DNA from: Paludibacteraceae bacterium | GTDB taxonomy: Bacteria > Bacteroidota > Bacteroidia > Bacteroidales > Paludibacteraceae | Length of the DNA stretch: 64,000 nt | Assembly: GCA_051870915.1 (NCBI GenBank) | Contig: JBJECI010000024.1 | Location: 1,423-65,422 of the forward strand | Direction: 5' to 3' | In this document: positions 71 through 60,094 of the stretch, one piece after another | Numbering within the stretch: the first letter of the stretch is position 1 | How the letters are laid out: every line of letters starts with the position of its first letter | Notes under the pieces: generated by a model | What the model was told of the DNA's origin: nothing | The model's database searches: none | The model's input: the letters and a program-made list of their open reading frames with translations, nothing else | Made by a program: the position numbers and the translations under genes

Positions 71-1174
71 ATGCAACATTTTCTTGATTATATTGCCATT
101 GAGCGGCACTATTCGCCGAAGACGGTCAGCGCTTATCACGATGACCTGCGGGATTTCTGCCGCTTCCTCGGCGTGGAGCCTGAGCAATATGACCCGAAGA
201 TGGTGGACGAGGAGGATGTGAAAGCATGGATGATGCACATGCTCGACGAGCAGAAACAGTCCGTCCGCAGCGTCAAACGGCGGCTATCCAGCCTGCGGTC
301 GTTCTATAAGTACTTGTTGCGTATAGGGCGCGTGGAGAAAGACATCACGCAGCGCGTCATCGCCCCTAAAGCCGACAAGCCGTTGCCCGTCTTCTTCCGC
401 GAGAGCGAGATGGAGCAAGCCACGGAGATGGACTTCGCCGCCGATGATTTCTGCGCTGCCCGCGACTGCCTCATCATCGAACTGCTCTACCAAACGGGCA
501 TGCGTCGCGCGGAGTTATGCCACCTCATGCCCGCCGACATTGACCTCACGCAGAAGCAGATACGCGTGTTCGGCAAACGCCGCAAAGAGCGCGTCATCCC
601 CATCGGCGACACCCTCGCCACCCAGATACAGACCTACCTCGGGTTTCGAGAGGAGTTAGGAGTACAGAGTATTGGAGGTGCGGTCTCCTGGCCGCACCAA
701 AAAGACTTTCAAGGAGGTGCGGTCTCCAGGCCGCACCAAGGAGACTTTCAAGGAGGTGCGGTCTCCAGGCCGCACCAAGAGAGCGAAATGGATACCATGG
801 TGCGGCTCCCGAATAATCGGGATAACACTTCCAACCGCACCTCCATGAGCACCGCAGCCCTTCCCCTCCTACTGAAGCAGACCCGCAAGGAGGAGATAAA
901 GCCCCTGACGGAGAACGATATCTACCGTATCGTGCGCTCGCGCATGGGCGAGGTCAGCTCCCTCAAGAAACACTCCCCACACGTGCTGCGACATACCTTC
1001 GCCACCACCATGCTCAACCACGGCGCAGATATCCGCACCATACAAACTCTGCTCGGACACGCCTCTCTCAGCACCACGCAGGTATATACCCACACCACCT
1101 TCGAGCAAGTGCAGAAAGCCTATCAACACGCCCACCCGAGAGCGAAAAAACAAGAAGACCCAAAGACCCTCTAA
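71..1174 (+). CDS. Tyrosine site-specific recombinase, XerC/XerD family, with an internal repeat-derived insertion
   Basis: 367-aa ORF. N-terminal core-binding motif IERHYSPKTVSAYHDDLRDFCRFL. Catalytic-domain motifs TGMRRAEL, HVLRHTFATTML and LLGHASLSTTQVYTH. Nt ~655-870 encode non-conserved filler that includes three 39-nt tandem units. Confidence 0.88.
   Translation: MQHFLDYIAIERHYSPKTVSAYHDDLRDFCRFLGVEPEQYDPKMVDEEDVKAWMMHMLDEQKQSVRSVKRRLSSLRSFYKYLLRIGRVEKDITQRVIAPKADKPLPVFFRESEMEQATEMDFAADDFCAARDCLIIELLYQTGMRRAELCHLMPADIDLTQKQIRVFGKRRKERVIPIGDTLATQIQTYLGFREELGVQSIGGAVSWPHQKDFQGGAVSRPHQGDFQGGAVSRPHQESEMDTMVRLPNNRDNTSNRTSMSTAALPLLLKQTRKEEIKPLTENDIYRIVRSRMGEVSSLKKHSPHVLRHTFATTMLNHGADIRTIQTLLGHASLSTTQVYTHTTFEQVQKAYQHAHPRAKKQEDPKTL
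674..790. repeat. Three tandem 39-nt units, each carrying an HP-A hairpin, inside the XerC/D-like CDS
   Basis: HP-A copies at 674-698, 713-737 and 752-776, period exactly 39 nt. Translated as GGAVSWPHQKDFQ / GGAVSRPHQGDFQ / GGAVSRPHQ. Confidence 0.95.
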
Positions 1175-1175
1175 A

Positions 1176-1258
1176 TCTCCCTTAAAGGGAGACTTATATA
1201 AATAACTATTGTTTAACTTTAACTAACTTCCCAAATCTCTCCCCCTTTAAGGGGGAGA
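1176..1258. repeat. Two TCTCCC(CC)TTTAAGGG(GG)AGA hairpins between the recombinase gene and hpf
   Basis: Hairpins at 1176-1192 and 1238-1258. The same motif occurs inside the MBOAT CDS at 60466-60500. Confidence 0.85.
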
Positions 1259-1276
1259 CGGAGGGGGTCCTTTATT

Positions 1277-1564
1277 ATGAAACTCAACACCCAAGCCGTC
1301 AATTTTGACATCGCTGACCGTCTGTCAGCCCACATCGAGAAGAAAACCCGTCGTTATGAGAAACTGTTACCCGAGGCTGCCGAGATGGAGATTCGCCTGA
1401 CCGTCATCAAGCGCGAGACCAACCTCAACAAAGAGGCAACCATCCGCGTGCGCGGTATCGGCAACGAACTCTTTGCGGAGAAAGTGTGCGACACCTTCGA
1501 GCAGGCGGTGGACGAGGCACTGGATGCACTCGACCGCCAGATAGAGAAGCATAATGCGAAATAA
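1277..1564 (+). CDS. hpf: Ribosome hibernation promoting factor / RaiA (short form)
   Basis: 95-aa ORF starting MKLNTQAVNFDIADRLSAHIEKKTRRYEKLL. Size and sequence are typical of the HPF/RaiA family. Confidence 0.85.
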   Translation: MKLNTQAVNFDIADRLSAHIEKKTRRYEKLLPEAAEMEIRLTVIKRETNLNKEATIRVRGIGNELFAEKVCDTFEQAVDEALDALDRQIEKHNAK

Positions 1565-1640
1565 GCCCCTGCCCTCTTTTTTCACCAAACGCCATCGGGA
1601 ACGCGGGCACCTCGCCCGCCGTTCCCTTTGGGGCAGCACA

Positions 1641-4334
1641 ATGCGTCCGGCATTGTGCATCGGCTTTTTGGCATGCTGCCTTGCGCTCTCTGCCGGCGAG
1701 GTGATACTCGTGGGCGATGTGCTGAACGAGGCAACGGGCGAGCCTATCCCCAACGTGCACCTCTACCTGCAAGGCACGCAGCAAGGGACGGTCACCAACG
1801 ATGAGGGCAGTTTCTGCCTGAAAGCCGACATCGACCGCAAGCGGCGGCTCATCATCTCCGCCGTCGGCTACCACACCCAGCGCTACGACATCGAGCCGAA
1901 CACCATGGCGGGCATGCAGGTGCTGCTGCGCGAGAAGACAAACCTCTTGGCGGAGGTGGTCGCCCTTCCGGGAGAGAACCCCGCCATCCCCCTCATTGCC
2001 CAAGTGCGCGCCCATCGCCCAGAGAACGACAGGACGTTACAGAGCCAAGACTATCGTCCGGGTGCGCAGGCGTCCCCGCCTGCTGTAAAGGAGGTGCGGT
2101 CTCCAGGCCGCACCATAGGATGCCCGGGTGTGCAGGCGTCCCCGCCTGCTGATTTCAAGATTCACCCATCGGACGCCGAGCAGACATGGCTCGCCTCTAC
2201 CGAACTGTATATCAGCCATATCGGCAAGCGGCAACTGCAACGCCATCTATGGAAGAGCCTGCGGGCGGGCTTGCTCACCACGGATGACTCCACTTTCCTC
2301 CTGCCCCTCTATCGCTCCACCCAACCCGTGCATCTCATCGGCAAGGGCATGCGCCCCGCGGGCGAGAAACAGGAGCAAGCACTCATCCTCTCCGCCTCCG
2401 ACTACTCCGTCCTGCTCACCCCGCCGCAGAACCTCAATTTCTACCTCAACACCCTTGACATCCTCGGCGAAAGTTTCCTCTCACCGCTCGCTTCCTCCGG
2501 CAACACCTACTATCACTATTACCTCGCCGACTCCGTGGCAGGCGCGTACTTGGTGCATTTCCGCACGAAGAACCCTTTCTATGCCACCTTCAACGGCGAG
2601 ATGTGGATAGACTCAGCCACCTACGCCGTGCGGTCGGTCTATGCCGAGGTGCCGACGCAGAGTCGCGTGAACTACCTGAGCCAACTGCAGATACGCCAGC
2701 AGTTCGCCCCCGACCACAGCCTCAGCCGTGAGCAGATAAGTGTCCTGCTCGACTTCGCCGTCAAGACCGACACCACCCACCTCTTCCCCACCGTACTGCT
2801 GAGGACGGAGGTAAGGGATGAAAGATTAAGGACGCAGGATGAAAGACTAAATAGTTCTGTGGATAATGGAGGTGCGGTCTCCATGCCGCCCCAAGGAGAC
2901 TTTCAAGGAGGTGCGGTCTCCATGCCGCACCAAGAAGGAACTGCGGTCTACAACAACTCCCCCGCCCCGCTTGCGGGGAGGGGGCAGGGGGCGGGGAACG
3001 ACTGCAATAATGGAGGTGCGGTCTCAGAGACGAATGTAATAAGTCCTTCATCCTTCATCCTTCATCCTTCATCCGAATTAGATTCCCTCCCCCTCATCCG
3101 CGTGGCGAAGTTCGCGGCGACGGTGCTCACCACGGGCTATATCCCTACGGGCACGTGCATAGACATCGGCAACATCCGCGAGATACTCGACTTCGGCGAG
3201 AGCGAGTTTGTGCACCTCGGGTTGCCGTTGCGCACCAACGAGCGGCTGTGGAAGAACGTGTCCTTAGAAGCCGCAGCGGGCTACGGCTTCCACGACCAAC
3301 GCTGGAAAGGGCTCGGGAAGATAAGTATCAACCTGCCCACGCAGCGGCGCAACATCCTGCGCTTGGAATACCAAGACCATTATATCGCCACCGAGGTGGA
3401 CGGTATGTATCCCTACTACCACGAGAACTTCTTCGGCAAGCGGCAGTTTGACTTCACCTCGTTCCTCTTCCGCAACCTCTACACCAACCGGCAAGCCGTG
3501 AACACCTATTCGCGGCAACGTGAGTTCCGCATAGAGACAGAGAACGACTGGAGCGACCTGCTGGAGACCCGCCTATACGCCCATGTCGGCAGGTGGGACC
3601 CGTGGTACACGGCGCAAGCCGCCAACAACCTCGCGCCCGGCATCCTCGCCACCGCCCCCTATCGCTATCAGTCCATTGGCACCGTCTTCCGCCTGAGTTG
3701 GGGCGAGCGCAAGGTGGACGGCTATTTCCTGCGCCGCTATGTCCACAGCCAATACCCCACCCTCTTCCTCTCCGCCGAGGCAGGAAGCGTACAGGATGTA
3801 GGATTAAGGACACAGGATAAAGGACTTATTAGTGTCGACTCTGGGGAAGCGGGCACCTATTCCCTGTATGCCAAACTGCAAGTGCTCGTCAAGCAGCGGG
3901 CGCGGTTGGGCATGGGCGGCACCCTCGATTGGGCGTTCTCCGCGGGCTATATCTTCGGCGAGGTGCCCTACCCCATGCGCCACCATTTCGAGGGCAACCA
4001 GTCGTATGCCTTCGACCCCTACCGCTTCACGCTGATGAACAACCTGCAATACAGCGCCCGCGGCTGGCTCTCGCTCCACGCGCTCTGGGACGGGCAGGGC
4101 GTGCTCTTCAACCTTATCCCGGGCATACGCTACTGTCGCCTGCACGAACTCGTGGACTTCAAACTCGCGTGGGGCGACGGCGAGTTGCTCCATAGTCCCT
4201 ACACCGAGGTGGGTGTCGGCATTGGCAATATCTTCCGCGTGGGCGAGGTGTATGCCGTCTGGCGGCTCACCCACCGCCAAGACCTCACCGCCCCCACATG
4301 GGGCATCCGCTTCCGATTCAAATTGGGGTTGTGA
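1641..4334 (+). CDS. DUF5686-like protein with N-terminal carboxypeptidase-regulatory-like domain, heavily interrupted by repeats
   Basis: The ORF opens at 1554. The in-frame ATG at 1641 gives a signal-like MRPALCIGFLACCLALSAG. CarbopepD_reg-like segment VILVGDVLNEATGEPIPNVHLYLQGTQQGTVTNDEGSFCL..ISAVGYH, followed by a long beta-rich C-terminal region. Repeat insertions lie at 2058-2151, 2811-3074 and 3792-3843. Confidence 0.7.
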   Translation: MRPALCIGFLACCLALSAGEVILVGDVLNEATGEPIPNVHLYLQGTQQGTVTNDEGSFCLKADIDRKRRLIISAVGYHTQRYDIEPNTMAGMQVLLREKTNLLAEVVALPGENPAIPLIAQVRAHRPENDRTLQSQDYRPGAQASPPAVKEVRSPGRTIGCPGVQASPPADFKIHPSDAEQTWLASTELYISHIGKRQLQRHLWKSLRAGLLTTDDSTFLLPLYRSTQPVHLIGKGMRPAGEKQEQALILSASDYSVLLTPPQNLNFYLNTLDILGESFLSPLASSGNTYYHYYLADSVAGAYLVHFRTKNPFYATFNGEMWIDSATYAVRSVYAEVPTQSRVNYLSQLQIRQQFAPDHSLSREQISVLLDFAVKTDTTHLFPTVLLRTEVRDERLRTQDERLNSSVDNGGAVSMPPQGDFQGGAVSMPHQEGTAVYNNSPAPLAGRGQGAGNDCNNGGAVSETNVISPSSFILHPSSELDSLPLIRVAKFAATVLTTGYIPTGTCIDIGNIREILDFGESEFVHLGLPLRTNERLWKNVSLEAAAGYGFHDQRWKGLGKISINLPTQRRNILRLEYQDHYIATEVDGMYPYYHENFFGKRQFDFTSFLFRNLYTNRQAVNTYSRQREFRIETENDWSDLLETRLYAHVGRWDPWYTAQAANNLAPGILATAPYRYQSIGTVFRLSWGERKVDGYFLRRYVHSQYPTLFLSAEAGSVQDVGLRTQDKGLISVDSGEAGTYSLYAKLQVLVKQRARLGMGGTLDWAFSAGYIFGEVPYPMRHHFEGNQSYAFDPYRFTLMNNLQYSARGWLSLHALWDGQGVLFNLIPGIRYCRLHELVDFKLAWGDGELLHSPYTEVGVGIGNIFRVGEVYAVWRLTHRQDLTAPTWGIRFRFKLGL
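2058..2151. repeat. HP-C / HP-A / HP-C composite inside the DUF5686-like CDS
   Basis: CCGGGTG(C/T)GCAGGCGTCCCCGCCTGCTG at 2058-2085 and 2123-2151, flanking HP-A at 2090-2114. Translated as PGAQASPPAVKEVRSPGRTIGCPGVQASPPA. Confidence 0.9.
2811..3074. repeat. 264-nt composite insertion: MB left arm, 2 HP-A units (39-nt period), GD-like G/C hairpin, half HP-A, MB right arm
   Basis: MB arm at 2811-2860. HP-A at 2868-2892 and 2907-2931. CTCCCCCGCCCCGCTTGCGGGGAGGGGGCAGGGGGCGGGG at ~2957-2996. Half HP-A at 3012-3025. GTAATAAGTCCTTCATCCTTCATCC... runs to 3074. The reading frame stays open. Confidence 0.9.
3792..3843. repeat. MB left arm plus core start inside the DUF5686-like CDS
   Basis: CAGGATGTAGGATTAAGGACACAGGATAAAGGACTTATTAGTGTCGACTCTG, translated as QDVGLRTQDKGLISVDS. 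Confidence 0.85.
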
Positions 4335-4354
4335 TTATTTCTATATCTGATGAG

Positions 4355-4466
4355 TTATGTCGCCCCTTCCCGACAAGTCGGGATAAATCTCGGCTTGTAT
4401 GTAGGGGTTCGACGCATTCGTGGGGGCGAGCCCCTACGCTGGTTTCTGTCGCCCCTTCGGGGCTTA
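4355..4466. repeat. Small hairpin modules (GTCGCCCCTTCGGGGC type and CCCGACAAGTCGGG type)
   Basis: TATGTCGCCCCTTC..CCCGACAAGTCGGG at 4356-4383 and GTCGCCCCTTCGGGGC at 4448-4463. Related copies at 33307-33392, 19269-19283 and 32208-32222. Confidence 0.8.
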
Positions 4467-4523
4467 AAGGGAAGGCACAATCGGGAAGAAAAGGCATATT
4501 CTCTGCATTTTTTACCCCAAATG

Positions 4524-4555
4524 CTTGCATATTTCGTTAAAAAGCAGTACCTTTG
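4524..4555 (+). promoter_or_regulatory. Bacteroidota sigma-A-type promoter for the candidate sRNA
   Basis: cTTG at 4524-4527 and TACCTTTG at 4548-4555, spacing 20 nt. Shared extended context TTGCATAT..AAAAAGCAGTACCTTTGCA. Confidence 0.7.
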
Positions 4556-4561
4556 CACCCG

Positions 4562-4778
4562 CAGTTGATTAGTGGGAGTACATATTTTTATTAAAAGCGT
4601 TATAAGCCTCACTTGATTCTTTGAAAACTGGACACTTTCAAGAATTTTATGTATTCAAGCACAGGTTTATGCACGCTCACGTGTTAGCGTGGGTTTTCTG
4701 TGCGTAAGTTTGAATACATAAGGTAGTCCAGAACCTCAAAGAATCAAATGAAGCGAAACGAAAGTTCACGCTTTTTTT
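4562..4778 (+). ncRNA. Candidate ~215-nt structured sRNA (long imperfect hairpin; 6S-like architecture is only a hypothesis)
   Basis: Strong promoter at 4524-4555. Hairpin 4613-4747 with perfect helices TTGATTCTTTGA/TCAAAGAATCAA (4613-4624 with 4736-4747), CTGGAC/GTCCAG and TTATGTATTCAA/TTGAATACATAA (4647-4658 with 4709-4720), apex CACGCT..AGCGTG. A small hairpin plus T7 tract lies at 4751-4778. Confidence 0.45.
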
Positions 4779-4875
4779 GTGTCTCTATGCTACCCCTACG
4801 CCCCCTTCGGCGGACTAAAATAGCAAAAACCAAAACAATACAATATATACACAAACTATTAACAATTAACGTTTT

Positions 4876-8630: not shown

Positions 8631-9911
8631 TTAGTCTTTCTTGAAGAACTGGGTGTAGCCGGAGAGGTAGCGGTGGACGGCGGAGGAGAGGGGTCCGTAG
8701 TACTCGCCGCCGCTAGCGTTGGCGTGTCCGCCGCCGTTGAAGAGTTCGGCGGCAAGGATATTCACCGGTCGGTCGCCCTGCGAGCGCAACGAAATCTTCA
8801 CCTTGGTCTTGCAACCGCCGTGCGCCGCCTGCTCCTCGGGCGTTGCCTTGTCCTCACGCATGAAGCAGGAATAGTAGATGTCCTTGCTCTGCAGCGGCAT
8901 GTTCACGATTCCCTCGGCATCGCCCGATTGGAAGTTGTACTTGTATAACTCCTTGCGGCTCAAGTAGATAAGCGCCATGTGGTATTCGGGGAAGACACGC
9001 AACTTCTGGTTCAAGCAGTAGCCCACCAGCCGCATACGGTCCACGGAGTACTGGTTGAAGACATTGTTGTAAATCGCGTCCTTATCCACTCCCCATTCTA
9101 TCAGCCTTGCCACAATCCGATAGAGTTCGGGGTTGCGGGAGTTGTAGGAGAAATTGCCCGTATCGGTCATCAGGCCGGTGTAGATGCAGGTGGGGATAGA
9201 GGACTCACCCCAACCCTCCCTAAAATCACCCCGCTGCGCGTCGCTTGCGGGGGCCCCGAAAAGGGAGGGAGTTTGTTCCGCAGGCGAGACGTACCCGACC
9301 TGTCGGGATGTGCCACCTGCGCCCCCAGTATCCTCCGCTGTGATGAGTTCGTAAACCAACTGGCAGGTGGCAGGCGCTTCGGGGACGGACACCACCACGT
9401 CCGCGAAATCGGACGGGTGCAGGTGGTGGTCAATCAAGATGATTTTAGATTTACGATTTACGGAATTACGATTTACGATTGTTTCCGCGGGCGAGGAAGT
9501 CTCTGTGGTGCGGCCTTGAGACCGCACCTCCTTGAATGCGTCTTCTGCCCGCGACATAGTCGGGATGCCCGCGGCTTTGAGCAGCGCCGGAGCCAGTGCG
9601 CCTACGCGCTTCGGCTCGTTGAAGTCGGTGCAGATAATCAAGTCCGCTTCCGCCACGCGCCTCTCCGCCTCCTCGCGCTGCCGCTCGTGCACCAAGCACT
9701 TGTCCGCCTCGGGCAACCACATCAAGAAATCGGGTGCCGCCGTGGGCAAGACGACCGTCAGCGACTGCAAGTCGGGACGGCGGCAACGCAGCCAGTGGTA
9801 CATCGCCAGCGCACTGCCCATCGCGTCCCCGTCGGGCGACATGTGGGTGGTTATCACCACATTGGTTGCCTCGCTGACCAAACGGTATATTTCTTCAAAC
9901 TCAGTTCGCAT
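8631..9911 (-). CDS. nrnA: DHH/DHHA1 family phosphoesterase (NrnA-like oligoribonuclease / pAp phosphatase) with two repeat insertions
   Basis: The ORF extends to 10136, but homology-like sequence starts at the ATG at 9911 (MRTEFEEIYRLVSEATNVVITTHMSPDGDAMGSALAMYHW, a DHH motif region). Other motifs are IILIDHH, and GGGHANASGG for DHHA1. Insertions lie at ~9196-9335 and ~9444-9555. Confidence 0.8.
   Translation of the reverse strand: MRTEFEEIYRLVSEATNVVITTHMSPDGDAMGSALAMYHWLRCRRPDLQSLTVVLPTAAPDFLMWLPEADKCLVHERQREEAERRVAEADLIICTDFNEPKRVGALAPALLKAAGIPTMSRAEDAFKEVRSQGRTTETSSPAETIVNRNSVNRKSKIILIDHHLHPSDFADVVVSVPEAPATCQLVYELITAEDTGGAGGTSRQVGYVSPAEQTPSLFGAPASDAQRGDFREGWGESSIPTCIYTGLMTDTGNFSYNSRNPELYRIVARLIEWGVDKDAIYNNVFNQYSVDRMRLVGYCLNQKLRVFPEYHMALIYLSRKELYKYNFQSGDAEGIVNMPLQSKDIYYSCFMREDKATPEEQAAHGGCKTKVKISLRSQGDRPVNILAAELFNGGGHANASGGEYYGPLSSAVHRYLSGYTQFFKKD
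9201..9274. repeat. GG element inside nrnA, read on the opposite strand to the coaE copy
   Basis: GGACTCACCCCAACCCTCCCTAAAATCACCCCGCTGCGCGTCGCTTGCGGGGGCCCCGAAAAGGGAGGGAGTTT is ~85 percent identical by eye to 62744-62816 in the same plus-strand orientation. Confidence 0.85.
9444..9531. repeat. TTTACGAT word repeats plus a reverse-oriented HP-A inside nrnA
   Basis: TTTAGATTTACGATTTACGGAATTACGATTTACGATT at 9444-9480. GGTGCGGCCTTGAGACCGCACCTCC at 9507-9531. Translated on the minus strand as KEVRSQGRTTE...VNRNSVNRKSK. Confidence 0.9.
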
Positions 9912-16046: not shown

Positions 16047-16071
16047 GGGGCGGCATGGAGACCGCCCCTCC
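16047..16071. repeat. HP-A variant between the LolA-like start and the ftsK stop
   Basis: GGGGCGGCATGGAGACCGCCCCTCC. Confidence 0.75.
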
Positions 16072-16075
16072 TTGG

Positions 16076-18784: not shown

Positions 18785-18840
18785 GGTGCGGTCTGGAGAC
18801 CGCACCTCCTTTGGGCAGGCGGGGGCACCTGCATACCCGA
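18785..18840. repeat. Perfect HP-A palindrome plus an HP-C-like hairpin in the ftsK leader
   Basis: GGTGCGGTCTGGAGACCGCACCTCC at 18785-18809 (10-bp perfect stem), followed by GGGCAGGCGGGGGCACCTGCATACCC. Confidence 0.9.
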
Positions 18841-33185: not shown

Positions 33186-33480
33186 TTAACAATTAACATG
33201 CGTTGCGGGACGTTTTAACATATAATTATCATATAATTAACCATTAATTCGCGTTGAAAAATTAAGCAATGATACACATGTTGACCCAACGATTCAAAAT
33301 TGAGTTATGTCGCCCTTACAGGGCTTGCATTGTGGATGCCACTTTCCACGTAGGGACAAGTCCCTACGCTATTATATGTCGCCCCTTCGGGGCTATCGTT
33401 TGATAAATATTTTGGGTCAACTCGTATATCATTACCAAAAATTATATGAATAATTACACGATAATTACATGTTAAACAAT
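33172..33480. repeat. W repeats (TTAACAA; TAATTAT words) plus GTCGCCCCTTCGGGGC-type hairpins
   Basis: TTAACAATTAACAATTAACAATTAACA at 33172-33197. ACATATAATTATCATATAATTAACCATTAATT. Hairpin modules at 33307-33392. ATGAATAATTACACGATAATTACATGTTAA. Confidence 0.85.
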
Positions 33481-42350: not shown

Positions 42351-43430
42351 ATGGGCTTACTTTTATTATTCTTATTGTTGGCGATTGGGGTGTCTTTCTT
42401 GTGCTCGACGCTGGAGTCGGTACTGATGACCACCACGCTGAGTTTCATCACCATGCGCGAAGATGAGGGGTATGCGCCCGCCACGCTGATGAAGAAATAC
42501 AAGACCGAGACCGAGAAACCCCTCGCTGCCATACTCTCCCTCAACACCATTGCGAACACCATAGGCTCTGCCGGCGTCGGGCGGCAGGCTACTATCTTGT
42601 TCGGCTCCGAGTGGTTCGGACTGGTGAGTATCATCGTTACCTTGCTCATCCTCGTTTTCGCCGAGATAGTGCCGAAGACCATCGGCACCACCTACTGGAA
42701 GTCGCTCATGGGCTTCACCGCGAACACCATACGGCTGCTTATCTTCGTGATGTACCCCTTTGTCCTTCTTATTCAGTTGATTACACTTCTCTTCAAGCAC
42801 GAAGACGAAGAGGCGACGGTCAGCCGCGAGGAGGTTATCGCCATGGTCAACGTGGGCGAGGAAGAGGGCGTGATAGAGAAAGACGAGAACAAGATGATTA
42901 CCAACATGATGCGACTCGACTCCATCAAGGCGGCGGACGTGATGACGCCCCGCGTGGTAGCCAAGACCGCACCCGAGCAGATGACCATCAAGGAATACTA
43001 CGACTCCGATGAGTACGACCATTTCTCCCGCATACCCGTCTATAACGAGAACGCACCCGAGTACATCACGGGCTATATCCTGCGCGACGACGCCCTCGAA
43101 GACCTCGCGGAGGACAACTTCCAAGTAACCCTCGGCTCCATCAAACGCACCTTGCCTTCCTTTGACGAGAACATGTCCCTCAGCGACATCTTCGATGCCA
43201 TGCTCAAGCAGAAGTCGCAGATTGCGCTCATCATCGATGAGTACGGCTGCTTCCAGGGTATCCTCACCTTGGAGGACATCATCGAGACCATCTTCGGACT
43301 CGAGATAGTGGACGAGAGCGACGAGTACGTGGACATGCAGCAGTACGCCCGCGAACGCTGGCAACAACGCCAGAAGAAGTACATGAAGATAATAAAGAGT
43401 CAAGAACAAGGAGCCAAGAACCAAGACTAA
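42351..43430 (+). CDS. CNNM/DUF21-CBS family membrane protein (hemolysin-like)
   Basis: The ATG at 42351 gives MGLLLLFLLLAIGVSFLCSTLESVLM. DUF21 TM region followed by a CBS pair. The C-terminal KSQEQGAKNQD comes from an MB-variant repeat. Confidence 0.87.
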   Translation: MGLLLLFLLLAIGVSFLCSTLESVLMTTTLSFITMREDEGYAPATLMKKYKTETEKPLAAILSLNTIANTIGSAGVGRQATILFGSEWFGLVSIIVTLLILVFAEIVPKTIGTTYWKSLMGFTANTIRLLIFVMYPFVLLIQLITLLFKHEDEEATVSREEVIAMVNVGEEEGVIEKDENKMITNMMRLDSIKAADVMTPRVVAKTAPEQMTIKEYYDSDEYDHFSRIPVYNENAPEYITGYILRDDALEDLAEDNFQVTLGSIKRTLPSFDENMSLSDIFDAMLKQKSQIALIIDEYGCFQGILTLEDIIETIFGLEIVDESDEYVDMQQYARERWQQRQKKYMKIIKSQEQGAKNQD

Positions 43431-49103: not shown

Positions 49104-51662
49104 TTAAATCCAGCGGACGTAGCAGAAGTCCATGCGGTGGGGCAGGAGGTCGTTCTGCGGGTACATACGCAATCCGAACTTCATGCCGCCGGCATAGTCG
49201 AACTGATAGGTCGTCTCGAAGAAGAGGTGTGTACCCTCTGCCTTGACGAGTTTCAGCGGCTCTACCTCGTACAACTTGTCGTTGTTGTGGAGCGAGGTGC
49301 GGATAGCCACGAGTTCTACGCCAAGCCCCTTGTCGTTGAGTGCGTGGGTGTCGAGTTCTACCGCTACGCGCACTTTCTCGCCGACGTTGGGTTGCGACAT
49401 GTCGGGCATCTCTACCTTCACTACCTCAATCTCGTCCCAGTGGGCAGCCATGTTCTCTTTCCAAGCAGCGATGTCCTTTGCGGTAGCGTAGTGGTTAGCC
49501 GCGAGCAGGGCATGGCGCTTTGCCAACTTGTTGTAGAACTTGTTGAAGTAGTCGTCCATCATGCGCTTGGTCGTGAAGCGCGGGGTGATTTTGGTAACCG
49601 AGTTCTTGATGGTCTGTACCCACTCCGGCGAGTAGCCTTTGGAGTTCTTGGCATAGTACATCGGGATAATCTCGTTCTCCAACATCTGGTAGATGGTAGC
49701 GGCGTCGAGTTGGTCTTGGTGCGCTTGGTTCTCGTAGGTGCGCTTCTCGGTGAGTGCCCATCCTGCGCCTTTCACGTAACCTTCGTACCACCAGCCGTCG
49801 AGGACGGAGAAGTTCAACACACCGTTCATCTGTGCCTTCTCGCCGGAGGTACCGGAAGCCTCGAGCGGACGGGTCGGGGTGTTGAGCCAGATGTCCACAC
49901 CGCTGATGAGGCGTTTAGCGAGGCGCATATCGTAGTTCTCGAGGAAGATAATCTTGCCAAGGAACTGCGGCATACGGCTGATTTCGATGATACGACGGAT
50001 AAGTCCCTGTCCGCCGCCGTCTGCGGGGTGCGCCTTACCGGTGAAGAGGAACTGCACGGGATAACGCGGGTTGTTGACAATCTTGTCCAGACGCTCGAGG
50101 TCGGTGAAGAGCAGGTGAGCACGCTTGTAGGTAGCGAAACGGCGACCGAAGCCGATGATGAGGTTCTCCGCCTTCATCTCATTGAGCGCGCGCACGATAC
50201 GTGCGGGGTCGCCTTGGCTCTTCATCCAGTCTTCTTGGAACTTCTCCTTGATATAGTCTATCAACTTGTTTTTCAAGTTCATACGGGTAGCCCAAATCTC
50301 CTCGTCGGGGATGTCGTTATAGGCTTTCCACATCTCGAGGTTCGACTGGTCGTTAATCCACTCTGCGGGGAAGGTACGCTCGTACACCTCTTTCCACTGG
50401 CTGGCAGCCCATGTAGGCATGTGCACGCCGTTGGTAACGTAGTCCACGTGCAGTTCCTCGGGGTAGTAGCCGGGCCATACGGGCGAGAACATCTTCTTGC
50501 TGACCTCGCCGTGGAGCCAACTTACGCCGTTTGCCTCTTGGCAGGTGTTGAGCGCGAAGACCGACATGGAGAACTTCTCGTTGTTGTCGTCGGGGTTGGT
50601 GCGGCCCAGACCGATGAGGTCGTGCCACTCGATGCCCAACTTGCCGGCGTACTCGTTCATATACTTATAGAACAGCCCCTCCTCGAAGTAGTCGTGTCCT
50701 GCGGGCACGGGGGTGTGGCAGGTGTAGAGACCGCTCGCGCGCACCACTTCCTTGGCTTGGTTGAAGGTCAAGCCCTCGCCCTGCACGAGGTCCACCATGC
50801 GCTGCAAGCCCATGAGGGCAGCGTGTCCCTCGTTGCAGTGGTAAACATCTTTCTTGATGCCGAGTTTGTTCAGCGCGAGCATACCGCCGATACCGAGCAT
50901 AATCTCCTGCTTGATACGGTTCTCCCAGTCGCCGCCGTAGAGTTGGTGGGTGATTTGGCGGTCCCACTCGGAGTTTAACTCGTTGTCAGTGTCGAGGAGC
51001 AGCAGGTTGATACGTCCTACTGCCACTTTCCACAGGTATGCGTGCACGGTGCGTCCGGGGTAGGGCACGTCCACAATCATAGGGCTGCCGTCCGCCTCTT
51101 TCATCTGCGTGATGGGCAGGTTGCTGAAGTTCTGCGCCTCGTAGTTGGCAATCTGCTGTCCTTCGGGCGAGAGGGTCTGTGTGAAATAGCCGTAGCGATA
51201 GAGGAAGCCTATGGCGGTCATGTCCACATTGCAGTCGGATGCCTCTTTCAGGTAGTCGCCGGCAAGCACGCCTAAACCGCCCGAGTAGATTTTGAGCACG
51301 TGGCTCAAGCCGTACTCCATGGAGAAATAAGCGATGGAGGGCTTCTTCTTGTCGCGCGGTGCGTCCATGTAGCGACGGAAGTCGGCATACACCTTGTCCA
51401 GTTGCTCCATGAAGGCTTTGTCGTTGCTCAGTTCCTGCATGCGCTCATAACTGATGGTGTTAATCAGCATGATGGGGTTAGACTGCGCACGGTGCCATGC
51501 CTCGTTGTCAATTTGACGGAAGAGGTTCTTCCCTTCCGAGTTCCACACCCACCAAAGGTTATAGGCGAGTTCCTGCAATTTGTCAAGGTTTGCGGGCAAC
51601 TTAGCACGCACGTTCACCTCTTTCCACTGAGGTTGATTCACATTACTTACTTTAACGTTCAT
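49104..51662 (-). CDS. glgP: Alpha-glucan family phosphorylase (GT35)
   Basis: 852-aa ORF. Motifs AYFSMEYGL and GGLGVLAGD, and PLP-lysine region EASGTSGEKAQMNG. Confidence 0.92.
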   Translation of the reverse strand: MNVKVSNVNQPQWKEVNVRAKLPANLDKLQELAYNLWWVWNSEGKNLFRQIDNEAWHRAQSNPIMLINTISYERMQELSNDKAFMEQLDKVYADFRRYMDAPRDKKKPSIAYFSMEYGLSHVLKIYSGGLGVLAGDYLKEASDCNVDMTAIGFLYRYGYFTQTLSPEGQQIANYEAQNFSNLPITQMKEADGSPMIVDVPYPGRTVHAYLWKVAVGRINLLLLDTDNELNSEWDRQITHQLYGGDWENRIKQEIMLGIGGMLALNKLGIKKDVYHCNEGHAALMGLQRMVDLVQGEGLTFNQAKEVVRASGLYTCHTPVPAGHDYFEEGLFYKYMNEYAGKLGIEWHDLIGLGRTNPDDNNEKFSMSVFALNTCQEANGVSWLHGEVSKKMFSPVWPGYYPEELHVDYVTNGVHMPTWAASQWKEVYERTFPAEWINDQSNLEMWKAYNDIPDEEIWATRMNLKNKLIDYIKEKFQEDWMKSQGDPARIVRALNEMKAENLIIGFGRRFATYKRAHLLFTDLERLDKIVNNPRYPVQFLFTGKAHPADGGGQGLIRRIIEISRMPQFLGKIIFLENYDMRLAKRLISGVDIWLNTPTRPLEASGTSGEKAQMNGVLNFSVLDGWWYEGYVKGAGWALTEKRTYENQAHQDQLDAATIYQMLENEIIPMYYAKNSKGYSPEWVQTIKNSVTKITPRFTTKRMMDDYFNKFYNKLAKRHALLAANHYATAKDIAAWKENMAAHWDEIEVVKVEMPDMSQPNVGEKVRVAVELDTHALNDKGLGVELVAIRTSLHNNDKLYEVEPLKLVKAEGTHLFFETTYQFDYAGGMKFGLRMYPQNDLLPHRMDFCYVRWI

Positions 51663-51695: not shown

Positions 51696-51930
51696 AAGAT
51701 AAAGGATGAAAGACACAGGATGAAGGACTAAAAAGTCTCAAAGGAGGTGCGGTCTCCAGGCCGCACCATAGGTGATGCAATGCCCACTGGGTACGCAGGT
51801 GGTACATACCGACTTGTCGTGTGCGTCCCCGCCTGCGGTTTTCAAGGAGGTGCGGTCTCCTGACCGCACACTAATAGACGAAGGTAATAAGTCTTTTGTC
51901 CTTTATCCTTCATCTTTTATCCTTAAATCC
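51696..51930. repeat. Nested composite: MB left arm, HP-A, HP-C-like, HP-A, MB core and right arm (in the phosphorylase leader)
   Basis: MB arm at 51696-51739. HP-A at 51743-51767. GTGCGTCCCCGCCTGCGG at ~51820-51838. HP-A at 51846-51870. CTAATAGACGAAGGTAATAAGTCTTTTGTCCTTTATCCTTCATCTTTTATCCTTAAATCC runs to 51930. Confidence 0.9.
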
Positions 51931-52163: not shown

Positions 52164-52168
52164 AAATA

Positions 52169-52990: not shown

Positions 52991-53040
52991 ATTTCTCTCG
53001 TGCTTTGTTCAACCGATAGGCTCTTTTTCAAAAGCGAGTG

Positions 53041-53072
53041 CAAAAGTACTGCTTTTTTTTGACATGACCAAA
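53041..53072 (-). promoter_or_regulatory. Promoter for the tRNA-Asp/tRNA-Arg transcription unit
   Basis: Minus strand has TTTG (plus 53069-53072) and TACTTTTG (plus 53041-53048), spacing 20 nt. Confidence 0.65.
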
Positions 53073-53365
53073 TTTTTTGTAGAAAAAATGAAAAAAAAAA
53101 TGCAAATACATATTTTTCTACACAATTCTAACCCTTTTATCCTCCTTTGAAAAACCTTTCTACCTTGTTTCTATTGCCTTACTCACTATGTCGATATGCA
53201 ACAAAGTCAGAACACCTACCGCAGTTACATATAATTTCATTGAGACATTATCGGAATACAACAGAGATTAAAAGCCGAAGTATCAACTATTACCTCATCT
53301 ACTACCCTGCAAAAAACGGATAATTCCACAGAGAATTAGGTTTTATAGATAAAACGCCGCTTTAA

Positions 53366-53397
53366 TTTGTATATGTAAAAAAAAAGTTGTACCTTTG
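53366..53397 (+). promoter_or_regulatory. Promoter for dxs-trkA
   Basis: TTTG at 53366-53369 and TACCTTTG at 53390-53397, spacing 20 nt. Confidence 0.68.
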
Positions 53398-53451
53398 CGG
53401 GCTGTTATATGGTCTAACCAATTATAGAAATAGGTTCTAACACCCTGCATA

Positions 53452-55506: not shown

Positions 55507-56807
55507 GCACTCACCTTGCCAAACTGCTCTCGCGCGAAGATATGGAAATCAGTCTGTTGGATGCCAAGGCAGAACGCTTAGGCGATTTGGATGCCAACTA
55601 CGACCTGCTCACGAAGGTGGGCAGTCCTACTTCGATACACGACCTCAGGGATGTGGGCGTGGGCGATGCAGACCTCTTCATCGCCGTAACCCCCTCGGAG
55701 TCGGAGAACATCACGGCGTGCCTGATAGCCAATCAGTTAGGCGTGAAGAAGACCCTCGCGCGGATAGACAACTACGAGTATCTCATCCCCGAAAACAAGC
55801 GTATCTTCGAGCAGATGGGGCTCAACCACCTTATCTACCCCGAGGTGCTGGCGGCGCACGAGATAGAGGAAGCACTGAAAGTCAATTGGTTGCGCTATCA
55901 TATCACGCTCTGCGACGGGGCATTGGAACTCTGTGTAGTCAAGGTGCGCGAGGGAGCGCAGGTGCTGGGCAAGAAATTCCTGTCGGGCTTCTTCGGACAC
56001 GGGTTGTATCGCGTGGTGGCTATCAAACGCGGGCAAGACACCATCATCCCGCGCGGCAACGACGAGATAATGGCGGGCGACATGGTCTATGCCGTCTGCA
56101 CGCGCGAGAACATGAAAGCACTCCGCGAGCATACCGGCAAGCAGAAACGCGAGATAAAGAACATCATTGTCTATGGCGCTTCGCGTATCGCGCAAAAAGC
56201 CGTTCAGGAACTGCCGGAGGGCATGAGTATCAAGATACTGGAAGCCAACCGCGACCTCTGCTACCATATCTCCGATAAGGTGAATAACGCACTGATTATC
56301 AACGCAGACGGTAGCGATATGAACTCGCTCAAAGAGGAGGGCATACAAGATGCGGACGCGTTCATCGCGGTAACCGACCGCAGCGAGGCGAATATCTTTG
56401 CCTGCTTGGCGGCGAAGCGGTTTGGGGTGAAGAAGACCATCGCGGAGGTGGAGAACATCGATTATATCCCCATGGCAGAGGCGTTGGATATTGGTACGGT
56501 GCTCAACAAGAAGACCATCACCGCGGCGTATATCTACCAGATGTTGCTCGACGCGAGTGTACTCAACGTGCGCAACCTGACGAGCGCGGACGCGGAGATA
56601 GTGGAATTTGTCGCCGCCGAGGGCAACCGTATCACCAAGCACAAGATACGTGAGTTAGACCTGCCCGAGGAGGTGAATATCGGGGCTATCGTCCGCGCAG
56701 GCGAAGGCATACTCGTGAACGGCGAGACGCTGATACTCCCCGGCGACCACGTGGTGGTCTTCTGCAAGCAGCAAGCCATACGGCAGATGGAGAAGTTCTT
56801 TAGATAA
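55473..56807 (+). CDS. trkA: Trk potassium uptake system NAD-binding subunit TrkA
   Basis: 444-aa ORF. Two RCK units, each with a Rossmann motif ([19 protein letters not shown]; [13 protein letters not shown]). The start overlaps the dxs 3' end by 34 nt. Confidence 0.92.
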
Positions 56808-56916
56808 TTTGTAAATTTGAAAATTTGAAAATTGCCATGCGGGATAAATGGAACAATTTGAAAATGCATTGCGAAACTAATCATTTTCAAATTTTCAAAT
56901 TCTTAATTTTCAAATT
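56807..56916. repeat. W element: inverted AAATTTG / CAAATTT arrays between trkA and trkH
   Basis: Left arm AATTTGTAAATTTGAAAATTTGAAAATT. Right arm TCATTTTCAAATTTTCAAATTCTTAATTTTCAAATT. Confidence 0.9.
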
Positions 56917-56923
56917 CTGACAC

Positions 56924-58426
56924 ATGACTCGTACATTCAATAGGAAGATAGTAGTGAAGACGCTGGGCGCGCTGTTGTGCCTCGAGGCGTTGTTCATGCT
57001 GATACCGATGTTCACCTCGCTGGCGTACCGCGAGCCGGACTTCGAGGCATGGCTGGTGAGTACGGCTATCACCCTGCTCGCGGGCTTGCTCGGGCTGCTG
57101 ATAGGCAGGCGGGCGGAGCGCAAGGTGGCAGAGCGCGAGGGATACGCCATCGTGGCGCTGGTGTGGATAGTCTATTCCATCTTCGGCGTGTTGCCGTATT
57201 GGTTGAGTGGCGCGTTCTCTTCCTTCACCGACTGCTGGTTCGAGACCATGTCGGGCTTCACCACCACGGGTGCCACCATAGCGAGCGACGTGGAGAGCCT
57301 GACGCACGGCGTGCTCCTCTGGCGCAGCCTCAGCCAGTGGATGGGCGGCATGGGTATCATCGTGCTCTCGGTGGCTATACTCCCGATGTTCGGCTTGGGC
57401 GGCATGCAGTTATACGCCGCGGAAGTTACGGGTGTCAGTTACGAGAAACTGTCGCCGCGTATCGCCGACACGGCGAAGCACATGTGGGGACTCTATATCG
57501 TGATGACCTTGGCGGAGACTGGCCTGCTCTATCTCTTCGGCATGAGTGGTTTCGATGCCGTGTGCCACTCGCTCTCCACCATCTCCACGGGCGGTTTCTC
57601 CACGCGCAACGAATCGGTAATCAACGACGGAGCGGCTATCCAATACACCATTGCCGTCTTCATGTTCCTGTCGGGTATCAACTTCACCTACCTCATCCAC
57701 GCCCTGCGCGGCAAGCCCGGCAAACTCTTCCGCGACGAGGAGACGCGCTGGTACGCCGGAGCGGTGGCGGTATGCACGCTGGTGCTGGCAACGGGACTTT
57801 TCATCCACTATATGTTCCGCGAGGGCTACCCCAATGAGTTCGCCGGCGACGGTGTGTGGTGGCAGGCGCTGGAGACCTCTCTGCGCAAGGGTTTCTTCAT
57901 GGTTACCACGGCGATGACCAGTAGCGGTTTTGCCGCGTCGGACTACATGAGTTGGCCCAAACTGCTGTGGGTATTGGTGTTCTTCATGATGTTCACGGGA
58001 GCCAGTTCGGGCTCTACTGCGGGCGGTATCAAGTGGGTTCGCTTGGGTATCTTCGCCAAGTCGGCACTGGTGGAGTTGCAGAGGCGTATCCATCCTAACG
58101 CCATCATCCCCGTGCGCTTCAACGGGCGAGCGGTCAGCGAGCAGACCATCAGCAACGTGATGGCGTTCCTCTTCTTCTACTTGATTATCATCGTGCTGAC
58201 GGTGATTGTCTTCTGCGCTACAGGGGTCGCTTTCGATGAGGCAATAGGCACTGCCGTCTCGGCGATGGGTAATGTGGGTGTCAGCATCGGGCAGTTCGGA
58301 CCTCTGGGCAGTTATGCCGACTTCCCCACCGTAGCGAAATGGACGATGACCTTCGTGATGTTGATTGGTCGTCTGGAAATCTTCACCGTGCTCCTGCTCT
58401 TCACGAAAGCGCTGTGGAAGAAATAG
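56924..58426 (+). CDS. trkH: TrkH-family potassium transporter membrane subunit
   Basis: 500-aa polytopic ORF with selectivity-filter-like MSGFTTTGAT and STGGFST motifs. Confidence 0.9.
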   Translation: MTRTFNRKIVVKTLGALLCLEALFMLIPMFTSLAYREPDFEAWLVSTAITLLAGLLGLLIGRRAERKVAEREGYAIVALVWIVYSIFGVLPYWLSGAFSSFTDCWFETMSGFTTTGATIASDVESLTHGVLLWRSLSQWMGGMGIIVLSVAILPMFGLGGMQLYAAEVTGVSYEKLSPRIADTAKHMWGLYIVMTLAETGLLYLFGMSGFDAVCHSLSTISTGGFSTRNESVINDGAAIQYTIAVFMFLSGINFTYLIHALRGKPGKLFRDEETRWYAGAVAVCTLVLATGLFIHYMFREGYPNEFAGDGVWWQALETSLRKGFFMVTTAMTSSGFAASDYMSWPKLLWVLVFFMMFTGASSGSTAGGIKWVRLGIFAKSALVELQRRIHPNAIIPVRFNGRAVSEQTISNVMAFLFFYLIIIVLTVIVFCATGVAFDEAIGTAVSAMGNVGVSIGQFGPLGSYADFPTVAKWTMTFVMLIGRLEIFTVLLLFTKALWKK

Positions 58427-58432
58427 GGTGAT

Positions 58433-58538
58433 CAAGTTTCAGGTTTCAAGTCTCAGGTTTCAGGTTTCAAGTTTCAGGTTTCAAGTTTCAAGTTTCAGGT
58501 TTCAAGTTTCAAGTTTCAAGTTTCAAGTTTCAAGTTTT
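58433..58538. repeat. W repeat: about 15 tandem GTTTCAA/GTTTCAG heptamers between trkH and the SGNH gene
   Basis: CAAGTTTCAGGTTTCAAGTCTCAGGTTTCAGGTTTCAAGTTTCAGG...GTTTCAAGTTTCAAGTTTTAGG. Confidence 0.95.
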
Positions 58539-58546
58539 AGGTATAG

Positions 58547-60094
58547 GTGAAGCCCTCTCGTATCGCGATATTGATTTGGTGTGCCATCGCCCTGTTAGGG
58601 GTGATGTGTCTTGTATTGCCCGAGCGTATGCAGATAGGTCCACTCACCCTCCGATGGACGACCCTCAACAAAGTGCTGGGCAGTCAGGATGAAGGATTTC
58701 CTTTGGATGAAGGATTAAGGATGAAGGATGAAGGACTTGATAGTACAGCCTTTATGGAGGTGCGGTCTCCAGGCCGCACCCAATACAATGCAGACTTAGA
58801 ACCGAATGGTGCGGCCGGGAGACCGCACCTCCTTGACACCTCAGAGACGAAGGTAATAAGTCCTTCATCCTGTGTCCTTCCTCCTTTATCCCAAGAAAGT
58901 CCTTCATCCTGCGTCCTTCATCCTTCATCTGTGGAGGAGGAGGTGCAAGGCGATTCCGATGTCTTGACCGCCTTCCGTCAAGGCTTGGCGGAGGCGGATA
59001 GGCGGACAGTGCGCGTGGTGCACTACGGCGACTCGCAGATAGAGGAAGACCGCATGACGCAGACCCTGCGCCGCCGATTGCAAGCCGTCTATGGCGGCGG
59101 AGGAGTGGGCATGCTCCCCTTGCAGCAGACCATCCCCACGCGCACCATCAAGCAGACCCTCACCGTCAACGGCATCCGACAGACCACGCAGCAGGGACCC
59201 CGCCGCCACTTGGTCTATGGACCGAAGGCGCAACGCCGCGACAACGGTTTGTACGGTCCCATGGGACAGGTGGCGCTCCTCGGCGACACCACTCTCCAAC
59301 GGCAAGACAGCGCAGTCTTGCATGTAGAGCCGATGGGGAAGAAACCCTATTCCGAGACCTATTTTAACCGCGCGCGCGTATGGGCGGCAGGCGACTTCCG
59401 CTGCTACGTGAATGGGCAACCAATACCCACAGGAGGTGCGGTCTCCAGGCCGCACCATGAAGGGGATAGGCTTACTTTGGTGCGGTCTGGAGACCGCACC
59501 TCCTATGTGCTCGCGGACAGCACCACTTCCTGCGACCTTGCGCTGGTGGGCTGCGGCGAGGTCTATGCCGTCTCCCTCGAGACGGAGAGAGGTGTTATCG
59601 TGGACAACATCCCCATGCGCGGCTGCACAGGCACTATCTTCACCGACATCGACAGCACGCAGTTGGCTACCTTCTACCGAGAGACCAATACCCGACTGAT
59701 TATCATGCAGTTCGGTGGTAATGCCATCCCCTTCAACGAGCAGCCGACCACCATCGCGGGCACGGTGCAAAGCCTGCGCAAGCAGGTGCGCTACCTGCGC
59801 CGATGTGCGCCCGAGGCAAGTATCTTGTTTGTAGGACCCGGGGATATGCTGACGCAGATTGACGGCGAGACAACGACCTACCCGCTGCTGCCCTACATGG
59901 ACCGACTGCTCAGGAAGATGGCGGCGGAGGAGCACATCGCCTATTTCAGCCTCTATGAGATGATGGGCGGCAAAGACAGCATGCTGCGCTGGCAGAAAAA
60001 CGGCTGGGCAGGCAGCGACGGAGTCCACTTCACCCGCCGCGGCGCCGAGATAGCAGGAGAAAAACTATCAGAATACATCATGAAGAATTTGTAA
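58547..60094 (+). CDS. SGNH/GDSL-type hydrolase or acyltransferase partner protein, N-terminal region filled with repeats
   Basis: 515-aa ORF with GTG start and an N-terminal TM helix. SGNH blocks VVHYGDSQIEED, MQFGGNA and DGVHFTRRGAEI. Repeat DNA lies at 58686-58929 and 59432-59503. Confidence 0.72.
   Translation: MKPSRIAILIWCAIALLGVMCLVLPERMQIGPLTLRWTTLNKVLGSQDEGFPLDEGLRMKDEGLDSTAFMEVRSPGRTQYNADLEPNGAAGRPHLLDTSETKVISPSSCVLPPLSQESPSSCVLHPSSVEEEVQGDSDVLTAFRQGLAEADRRTVRVVHYGDSQIEEDRMTQTLRRRLQAVYGGGGVGMLPLQQTIPTRTIKQTLTVNGIRQTTQQGPRRHLVYGPKAQRRDNGLYGPMGQVALLGDTTLQRQDSAVLHVEPMGKKPYSETYFNRARVWAAGDFRCYVNGQPIPTGGAVSRPHHEGDRLTLVRSGDRTSYVLADSTTSCDLALVGCGEVYAVSLETERGVIVDNIPMRGCTGTIFTDIDSTQLATFYRETNTRLIIMQFGGNAIPFNEQPTTIAGTVQSLRKQVRYLRRCAPEASILFVGPGDMLTQIDGETTTYPLLPYMDRLLRKMAAEEHIAYFSLYEMMGGKDSMLRWQKNGWAGSDGVHFTRRGAEIAGEKLSEYIMKNL
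58686..58929. repeat. Composite in the SGNH CDS: MB left arms, forward HP-A, reverse HP-A, MB core and two right arms
   Basis: GGATGAAGGATT..GGATGAAGGATTAAGGATGAAGGATGAAGGACTTGATAGT. HP-A at 58756-58780 (read as EVRSPGRT) and 58808-58832 (read as GAAGRPHLL). GACGAAGGTAATAAGTCCTTCATCCTGTGTCC...GTCCTTCATCCTGCGTCCTTCATCCTTCATC. Confidence 0.92.
59432..59503. repeat. Forward plus reverse HP-A pair inside the SGNH CDS
   Basis: HP-A at 59432-59456 (GGAVSRPHH) and 59479-59503 (VRSGDRTS). Confidence 0.92.

Follow-up and report, generated by a model that had tools for sequence, protein, structure and literature searches.

Why should one short palindrome recur along a stretch of bacterial DNA, and be translated in frame where it falls within genes? 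The stretch in question, which we call the window, is 64,000 nucleotides long (C24:1423-65422 of a source genome labelled G000, a 2.5-Mb assembly of 137 contigs with 51% G+C), and the palindrome, HP-A, is a hairpin of which a preliminary description made from the letters of the window listed about 16 copies. We consider it highly probable that HP-A is a family of repetitive extragenic palindromes (REPs), often arranged in the inverted doublets known as REPINs, and that it is a non-autonomous mobile element of single-stranded DNA copied by one cognate HUH/Y1 enzyme, a REP-associated tyrosine transposase (RAYT). The preliminary description saw correctly that this is a dispersed hairpin family with copies in coding sequences (CDSs) and in several frames. 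The dedicated RAYT lies on another contig, beyond the window, so the REP identity of the family was missed.

The repeat family and its transposase

The core of HP-A is a 22-nt hairpin, GGTGCGGTCTCCAGGCCGCACC, and in the complete unit of about 34-36 nt the leader (T)CAAGGA stands on the 5' side of a 9-bp stem, which has one T-G position and closes on a 4-nt loop; the tail ATAG follows. Taken over the genome-wide copies the oriented consensus is (t)tCAAGGA-core-ATAg, with strong conservation of the 5' leader and weak conservation of the 3' tail; the tail (CTAT on the opposite strand) is a consensus at 40-70% per base only. As RNA the hairpin has a folding energy (dG) of -16 kcal/mol. Compensatory changes, which the preliminary description had proposed to look for among the loop variants, do occur: a 4-copy subfamily that includes the copy at 16047 has the stem GGGGCGG/CCGCCCC, and one further copy has GGTACGG/CCGTACC. 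The leader and the start of the stem together (window 711-722, for example) read AAGGAGGTG, a perfect Shine-Dalgarno-like sequence, and the reverse strand gives ATGGTG. Initiation led by a Shine-Dalgarno sequence is generally not the rule in the translation of Bacteroidota.

A genome-wide census places 238 loci of the core at up to 4 errors, with 181 exact; allowing at most 1 mismatch gives 241 and at most 2 gives 262, while the same pattern read backwards, as a control, gives 0. This is far above chance, and it disposes of the doubt, raised with the preliminary description, that the copies might be nothing but chance recurrence of a k-mer. In the window alone the half-site GGTGCGGTCT (at most 1 mismatch) occurs 29 times against 4.4 +/- 2.3 in dinucleotide-preserving shuffles, and 0 of 100 shuffles reach 29. 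The arrangement of the copies is just as far from random. Inverted neighbours stand forward-then-reverse in 22 cases and reverse-then-forward in 0, at distances of 44-80 nt, and the doublet at window 59432-59503 folds as one long hairpin (dG of -36 kcal/mol as DNA and -63 as RNA). The suspicion that such pairs form larger structures was sound, for they are real units, and we regard both the repeat family and its REPIN geometry as established. Singletons are nevertheless more numerous than doublets. Direct neighbours are spaced by a multiple of 3 in 25 of 26 cases; inserts gain or lose whole units of 39, 45 or 48 nt, and the host frame is therefore preserved. The tandem arrays presumably arose by slippage or by insertion next to existing copies.

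Three genes in the genome match Y1_Tnp, on contigs C115, C85 and C112, and only the one on C112 has HP-A flanks. Clusters of HP-A stand on both sides of it, nine copies within about 1.2 kb. This C112 RAYT matches the Pfam family at 43-48 bits (cut-off 23) and finds its best NCBIfam match in the REP-associated tyrosine transposases (REP_Tyr_transpos). Its motifs NHVH, WQ and YIQHNP are close to those of TnpA-REP subclasses 2.4 and 2.6, which have been described for Bacteroidetes (PMC6006769). The pairing of this RAYT with this REP is established in two species, since the congener G240 has a RAYT 85% identical to that on C112 with HP-A again on both sides, in five copies. Other RAYTs have pairings of the same sort. 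The C85 RAYT (199 aa; L003) and its counterpart in G151 (L161) are flanked by a second REP family, CCGGGTGCGCAGGCGTCCYCGCCTGCTG, and by no HP-A, and RAYT homologues of at most 55% identity in metagenome-assembled genomes (MAGs) of other Bacteroidales are flanked by hairpins of their own, with an AGGAG(G) leader in 3 of 4 (L054, L057, L058; not L064).

The second REP family also touches HP-A directly. At window 2060-2090 and 2122-2150 it brackets the HP-A copy at 2090, and it lies near about 12% of HP-A copies genome-wide; the idea that HP-A is always nested in a second repeat was rejected on this figure. It too is translated in genes, as AGGDACAPG, TGDAGVSPA or PGAQASPPA. Directly upstream of the third Y1_Tnp gene, the IS200-like TnpA of C115 (151 aa), is a 48-nt tandem repeat with the hairpin GCCCCGAAGGGGC (L001:1040-1300), which runs from the 3' end of the preceding gene and is unrelated to HP-A.

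HP-A is confined to a small circle of relatives. It occurs in 9 of 266 other species of the genus, with 1-88 copies each, and was not found in the remaining 257; G000 has by far the most. The first 60 relatives searched had 0 and the scan of the full genus brought out the 9 carriers, and a strictly species-specific HP-A was rejected. It was not found in 24 searched genomes from other families of the order, and an exact-pattern scan of viral contigs gave no match. It does occur on metagenome contigs of one sample (SAMEA3663036) and in one other record, which represent a sister lineage of about 80-93% DNA identity. The two lineages share orthologous copies at the XerC site, at C73:13607, at a REPIN on C26 and on C103, and each has private copies as well, and therefore HP-A has gained or lost copies since the lineages split, a turnover that we also count as established. 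The XerC site is the most instructive. In the sister lineage it holds a single forward copy and a single reverse one. In G000 the forward unit is triplicated, which adds 78 nt, with 21 and 9 extra nt at and just beyond the loop of the reverse copy; 78, 21 and 9 are all multiples of 3.

Could HP-A be moved by some other enzyme, a DDE transposase or the second RAYT, or have spread by recombination or slippage alone, its flanking of the C112 RAYT being a by-product? There are real arguments for this. Seven of the nine HP-A-carrying congeners have no detected RAYT of the C112 type, among them G151 with 85 copies as well as G097, G207 and G226, HP-A lands nearly everywhere, and the tandem arrays show growth like that of slippage. 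Those congeners could have lost the gene, or their assemblies may miss it because it sits amid repeats, and another enzyme could also move HP-A. However, nine copies within about 1.2 kb of the RAYT far exceed the genome-wide figure of about 1 per 10 kb, the flanking is retained in G240, and the second RAYT is flanked, in two species, by a different family of its own. Random recombination leaves a single inverted arrangement, 22 against 0, unexplained. Alignments of filled and empty sites show neither terminal inverted repeats nor a fixed target site duplication, the marks of a miniature inverted-repeat element of a DDE transposon, and the element is one hairpin. We find this alternative unlikely.

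Copies inside genes and in the window

Where HP-A sits relative to genes was judged from a simple codon-usage gene caller, so that its coding fraction, 36-67% according to definition, is approximate; 16 genes were checked by homology. In chosen open reading frames (ORFs) lie 160 of the 238 copies (67%), against 73% of random positions. Counting as strictly internal only copies with at least 50 coding-like codons on each side leaves 86 (36%), against 47% of random positions. Some 108 ORFs are affected. The preliminary description held that a coding fraction no different from chance would speak against a real family. The fraction found is near the random one, which is ordinary for a k-mer and very unusual for a REP family.

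Orthologues tell us what HP-A adds to these genes. When aligned, the 16 genes have 8-60 residues more than their orthologues precisely where HP-A lies, and on either side the sequence is conserved and stays in one frame. XerC has about 60 extra residues between the region of the catalytic Arg/Lys and the HxxR motif, a stretch of about 10 residues in five congeners. The DUF5686 protein shows two gaps in its orthologue matches, both at HP-A sites, and the GDSL-like hydrolase has two REPINs that are both missing from its orthologues. In 13 further genes, sampled via a chimeric protein query, 8-49 extra residues stand exactly at HP-A, in frame and between well conserved flanks. We regard in-frame insertion relative to orthologues as established. 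The possibility that copies in CDSs are restricted to genes broken elsewhere fails on the same alignments, in which the carrier genes are full length, colinear with their orthologues and not otherwise broken.

The preliminary description counted at least four combinations of frame and orientation in which HP-A is translated, and in fact all six are found in CDSs. Among the 86 strictly internal copies the peptide is MVRPGDRTS in 37, EVRSPGRT in 24, GGAVSRPH in 10, GAAWRPHL in 8, RRCGLQAAP in 6 and WCGLETAPP in 1. The two rarest frames are exactly those that meet TAG or TGA in the consensus flanks, which fits a filter of selection rather than design. The further claim that HP-A is stop-free in most frames as a special property does not hold up. 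None of the six frames of the 22-nt core contains a stop, but the same is true of 61% of the sequences made by shuffling it and of 26% of 22-mers drawn at random from the genome. With its flanks, the 34-nt element keeps 4 of 6 frames open, which is the commonest outcome of shuffling. Three 39-nt units in a row keep 5 of 6 open, a number that 32% of shuffled units reach. Open frames are what the composition predicts, and a stop-free design was rejected on these tests.

We would explain this distribution as follows, reasoning by analogy with TnpA-REP and IS200/IS605. The RAYT would recognise the folded HP-A hairpin and an adjacent tag on single-stranded DNA, then cut and rejoin it. Insertion would be almost blind to gene boundaries, and selection would remove those insertions that cause a frameshift, a stop codon or damage to the fold. 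The genic copies that survive would be in-frame inserts of about 11-12 aa, or multiples of this, in variable loops and linkers, and they could later lengthen or shorten by the whole units of 39, 45 or 48 nt. Within their proteins they are probably neutral passengers. We read HP-A as selfish DNA filtered by selection, rather than as a coding module made by design or a hairpin with a regulatory role, because its open frames are as composition predicts, its intergenic copies compared with random positions show no bias of convergent, divergent or tandem context and none of orientation, the orientation of singletons follows local GC skew in a weak trend that is not significant (odds ratio 0.45, p = 0.07), and no Rfam family matches it at the gathering threshold.

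The opposite position would be that HP-A is a motif selected by the host, either in RNA, as a terminator, an mRNA stabiliser or a point of pausing, or in DNA, as a site for a host protein, and that its function accounts for its copy number. Such roles have been assigned to REPs of other bacteria (PMC3733652), the hairpin is stable as RNA, and the leader is Shine-Dalgarno-like as described above. But the intergenic copies favour neither 3' ends nor convergent genes and have no orientation bias, more than a third of all copies lie in genes and occur there in every one of the six frames, HP-A was not found in 257 of 266 congeners that share the gene set, and Rfam has no matching family. This makes the idea very unlikely in our judgement. 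We give least credence of all to the proposal that intragenic HP-A marks decaying genes or assembly errors and is not translated in working proteins, for although the assembly is fragmented into 137 contigs and repeats are prone to misassembly, the host ORFs, XerC and other conserved genes included, are full length and colinear with orthologues on either side of the inserts, the same inserts appear in an independent metagenome assembly, the indels between lineages are multiples of 3, and dN/dS is 0.06-0.12 over the MmeI gene that bears HP-A and the RAYT.

Mobilisation of a REP family by the C112 RAYT is thus the explanation we prefer, and it is important to realize what weighs against it besides the seven congeners without that RAYT. 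The REP_Tyr_transpos score of the C112 RAYT, 61.8 bits, is under the curated cut-off of 80. The classical GTAG tag at the foot of the stem is absent in HP-A, whose strongly conserved tag, AAGGA, is on the 5' and opposite side of the stem; a related REP of the congener G063 carries GTAG. REPs are expected outside genes and HP-A, with 160 copies in called ORFs and 86 strictly internal, is not confined there, although this count depends on a crude caller, tempered by the 16 genes checked by homology. Mobility is deduced from the comparison of lineages, no transposition event having been seen directly. An exact target site, a duplication or an excision footprint could not be read, the empty sites of congeners and of the sister lineage being too diverged; because of this divergence, and because inserts are often composite with other repeat families, no boundaries of HP-A inserts could be fixed.

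Returning to the window, every position named in the preliminary description for the roughly 16 copies does carry one when the sequence is read again (Table 1). The 39-nt period is real in XerC and in the DUF5686 gene, with the identical spacer AAGGAGACTTTCAA in both. The assignment of twelve copies to CDSs also stands: 3 are in XerC, 4 in the DUF5686/CarboxypepD_reg gene, 1 in the DHH/DHHA1 gene and 4 in the GDSL-like hydrolase. Those at 16047, 18785, 51743 and 51846 are intergenic or at the 5' edge of a gene. To these we add a reverse copy at 799-849 with a 29-nt loop, absent from the earlier list, which completes a REPIN with the three forward copies of XerC, its forward arm having been triplicated. 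Of the half-site matches, those at 42964 and 43048 read as ordinary coding sequence, and the one-mismatch matches at 4280 and 21267 are without a partner arm.

Table 1. Copies of HP-A in the window
Feature	Position	Strand	Remarks
HP-A copy 1 of the 39-nt tandem array in XerC	674..698	+	loop variant TCTCCTGG; peptide GGAVSWPH
HP-A copy 2 in XerC	713..737	+	exact core; peptide GGAVSRPH
HP-A copy 3 in XerC	752..776	+	exact core
Reverse HP-A in XerC, loop expanded to 29 nt	799..849	-	pairs with the forward copies as a REPIN; in the sister lineage the loop at this site is not expanded
HP-A singleton in the DUF5686/CarboxypepD_reg gene	2090..2114	+	between two copies of the second REP family (GCAGGCGTCCCCGCCTGC); peptide EVRSPGRT
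Degenerate HP-A, first of a 39-nt tandem pair in the DUF5686 gene	2868..2892	+	
HP-A, second of the 39-nt pair in the DUF5686 gene	2907..2931	+	loop variant TCTCCATG
5' half copy of HP-A	3012..3027	+	fused to the right arm of a 'word-repeat' element
HP-A singleton in the DHH/DHHA1 (NrnA-like) minus-strand gene	9507..9536	-	peptide EVRSQGRT
Variant HP-A at the 5' edge of a gene	16047..16075	-	compensated stem GGGGCGG...CCGCCCC; member of the 4-copy subfamily
Intergenic HP-A	18785..18814	-	perfect stem
Intergenic HP-A	51743..51767	+	in the leader upstream of the minus-strand gene ending at 51662
Degenerate intergenic HP-A	51846..51870	+	in the leader of the minus-strand gene ending at 51662
REPIN in the GDSL-like hydrolase	58756..58837	.	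forward 58756-58780, reverse 58808-58837; in the variable linker after the N-terminal membrane helix
REPIN in the conserved body of the GDSL-like hydrolase	59432..59508	.	forward 59432-59456, reverse 59479-59508; in frame, GGAVSRPH...LVRSGDRTS; orthologues without it

Around two of these places, window 2800-3070 and 58700-58880, HP-A lies between long inverted arms of short words (GGATGAAGGA... and ...TCCTTCATCC), forming composite elements nested in coding sequence. Elsewhere in the window, at 33349-33394 on the plus strand, Rfam matches the Acido-Lenti-1 RNA at 46.2 bits against a gathering score of 37.

Transposases read within host genes

The C112 RAYT has neither a start nor a stop codon of its own. 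Together with the flanking REPs it makes up an in-frame block of about 345 aa in the methyltransferase domain of an MmeI-family restriction-modification gene, a 1314-aa ORF on the minus strand of G000 at C112:785-4726, beyond the window. Pfam reads this ORF as MmeI_N, MmeI_hel, MmeI_Mtase (split in two), Y1_Tnp, MmeI_TRD and MmeI_C. An MmeI-type gene was matched in 32 of 100 congeners, in frames mostly of about 900-985 aa, and where both halves matched they usually abut, as in G062 and G006. G240 has the MmeI-RAYT fusion at the same site, and between the two species the RAYT has a dN/dS of 0.12 and the MmeI parts have one of 0.06-0.07; on these ratios the C112-type RAYT is under purifying selection.

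Nor is this a single accident. In G109 a 53%-identical RAYT, flanked by its own REP family, lies in frame at a different site of the MmeI-type gene, and in each of the two species, G109 and G000, REPs occupy the site that holds the RAYT in the other. The embedded MmeI-RAYT loci are L002, L147 and L155. In G063 a RAYT is in frame in a Type ISP gene. Of 80 RAYT homologues 29 are in open frames of at least 400 aa, and across phyla the hosts include leucyl-tRNA synthetase, an SNF2 helicase, a Type ISP enzyme, a DUF1156 protein and, both within the genus and in a Chthoniobacter MAG, MmeI-type genes (L075, L054, L117, L077 and L154 besides the leuS loci). Two leuS genes carry a RAYT in frame, L095:1639-4989 in a 6.2-Mb chromosome assembly and L060:1729-5037 in a Luteolibacter MAG. 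Each is the sole leuS of its genome, and at least one of these genomes is from the Verrucomicrobiota.

An earlier survey dropped long proteins of this kind as 'gene fusions or annotation errors' (PMC6006769). We would tentatively put forward another possibility, which we rate as somewhat less likely than not: this clade of RAYTs and its REPs may live within ORFs as a way of life, the transposase being made only as an internal in-frame domain of a host protein and the REPs being read through likewise. A seat in useful or essential ORFs would give the RAYT-REP system expression and protection from deletion, an intein-like niche without splicing. We found no description of such an arrangement in the literature searched. 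If it is confirmed, a host-embedded RAYT in several phyla would be a new niche for a mobile element.

One side observation concerns the REP family that accompanies the RAYT of G109. This REP, ACGACGCGTCYCGCGTCGT, has about 35-70 copies in G062; this genome is 98% complete, and a search of it found no RAYT of the kind. The copies are either orphans or have a RAYT that the assembly misses.

Comparison with known systems

By definition REPs are extragenic, and copies within genes tend to be seen as rare oddities. With HP-A, a REP family whose transposase looks live has entered over 100 genes of a small Bacteroidales-like genome of gut type, at a frequency near random expectation, and its hosts include the recombinase that resolves chromosome dimers. 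That the genome is Bacteroidales-like we deduce from its SusC/RagA, DUF5686 and CarboxypepD_reg proteins and from the taxa to which the nearest relatives of its RAYT belong. Bacterial proteins, it appears, can take up many selfish inserts. Such inserts are a ready source of variation in loops and linkers among close species, and the system amounts to a natural map of 'permissive sites' for many proteins. It is also a warning, in that repeats like HP-A will mislead annotation pipelines and homology searches.

The closest known system is that of REPs, REPINs and RAYTs (Nunvar 2010; Bertels & Rainey 2011, PMC3116915; Ton-Hoang 2012; TnpA-REP subclasses 2.4 and 2.6, PMC6006769). HP-A resembles it in being a short palindrome in hundreds of copies with one fixed geometry of inverted doublets, and in having one cognate HUH/Y1 transposase gene flanked by its own repeats, the arrangement called a REPtron. 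Separate REP families for separate RAYTs in one genome, subfamilies with compensated stems and a spread restricted to a clade are further points in common. The differences are as plain. HP-A is without a clear GTAG and has its conserved AAGGA(GG) on the other side of the stem; between a third and two thirds of its copies are in ORFs, near random expectation, instead of being extragenic; its singletons outnumber its doublets, and it forms direct in-frame tandem arrays; and its RAYT is read within a host gene, without a start or stop codon of its own.

In their behaviour within genes the nearest parallels are the Rickettsia palindromic elements (RPEs; Ogata et al. 2000) and the intragenic GTAG and CGTC REPs of Opitutus terrae, Thauera and others (Di Nocera et al. 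2013, PMC3733652). These too are palindromes in frame in known protein genes, to which they contribute about 10-80 residues, in many cases as dimers or clusters, and their authors read them as inserts tolerated in loops (PMC3733652). Those intragenic REPs are the exception in families that are mostly intergenic (PMC3733652), whereas HP-A has a near-random intragenic share and reaches more than 100 ORFs. The CGTC repeats, including RPE-4 and RPE-6, have no dedicated transposase (PMC3733652) and HP-A has one. We treat its likeness to RPEs as functional only, the host being Bacteroidales-like and the RAYT its own. With the IS200/IS605 family (IS608, ISDra2) HP-A shares an HUH/Y1 enzyme acting on folded single-stranded hairpins, and this is its likely chemistry; unlike those insertion sequences it carries no gene, and its RAYT has not multiplied along with it. 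HP-A lacks the GTAG tag and the extragenic location of a classical REP, but it has the copy number, the REPtron and the REPINs, and it is best filed with the REP/REPIN-RAYT systems as a member that behaves like an RPE.

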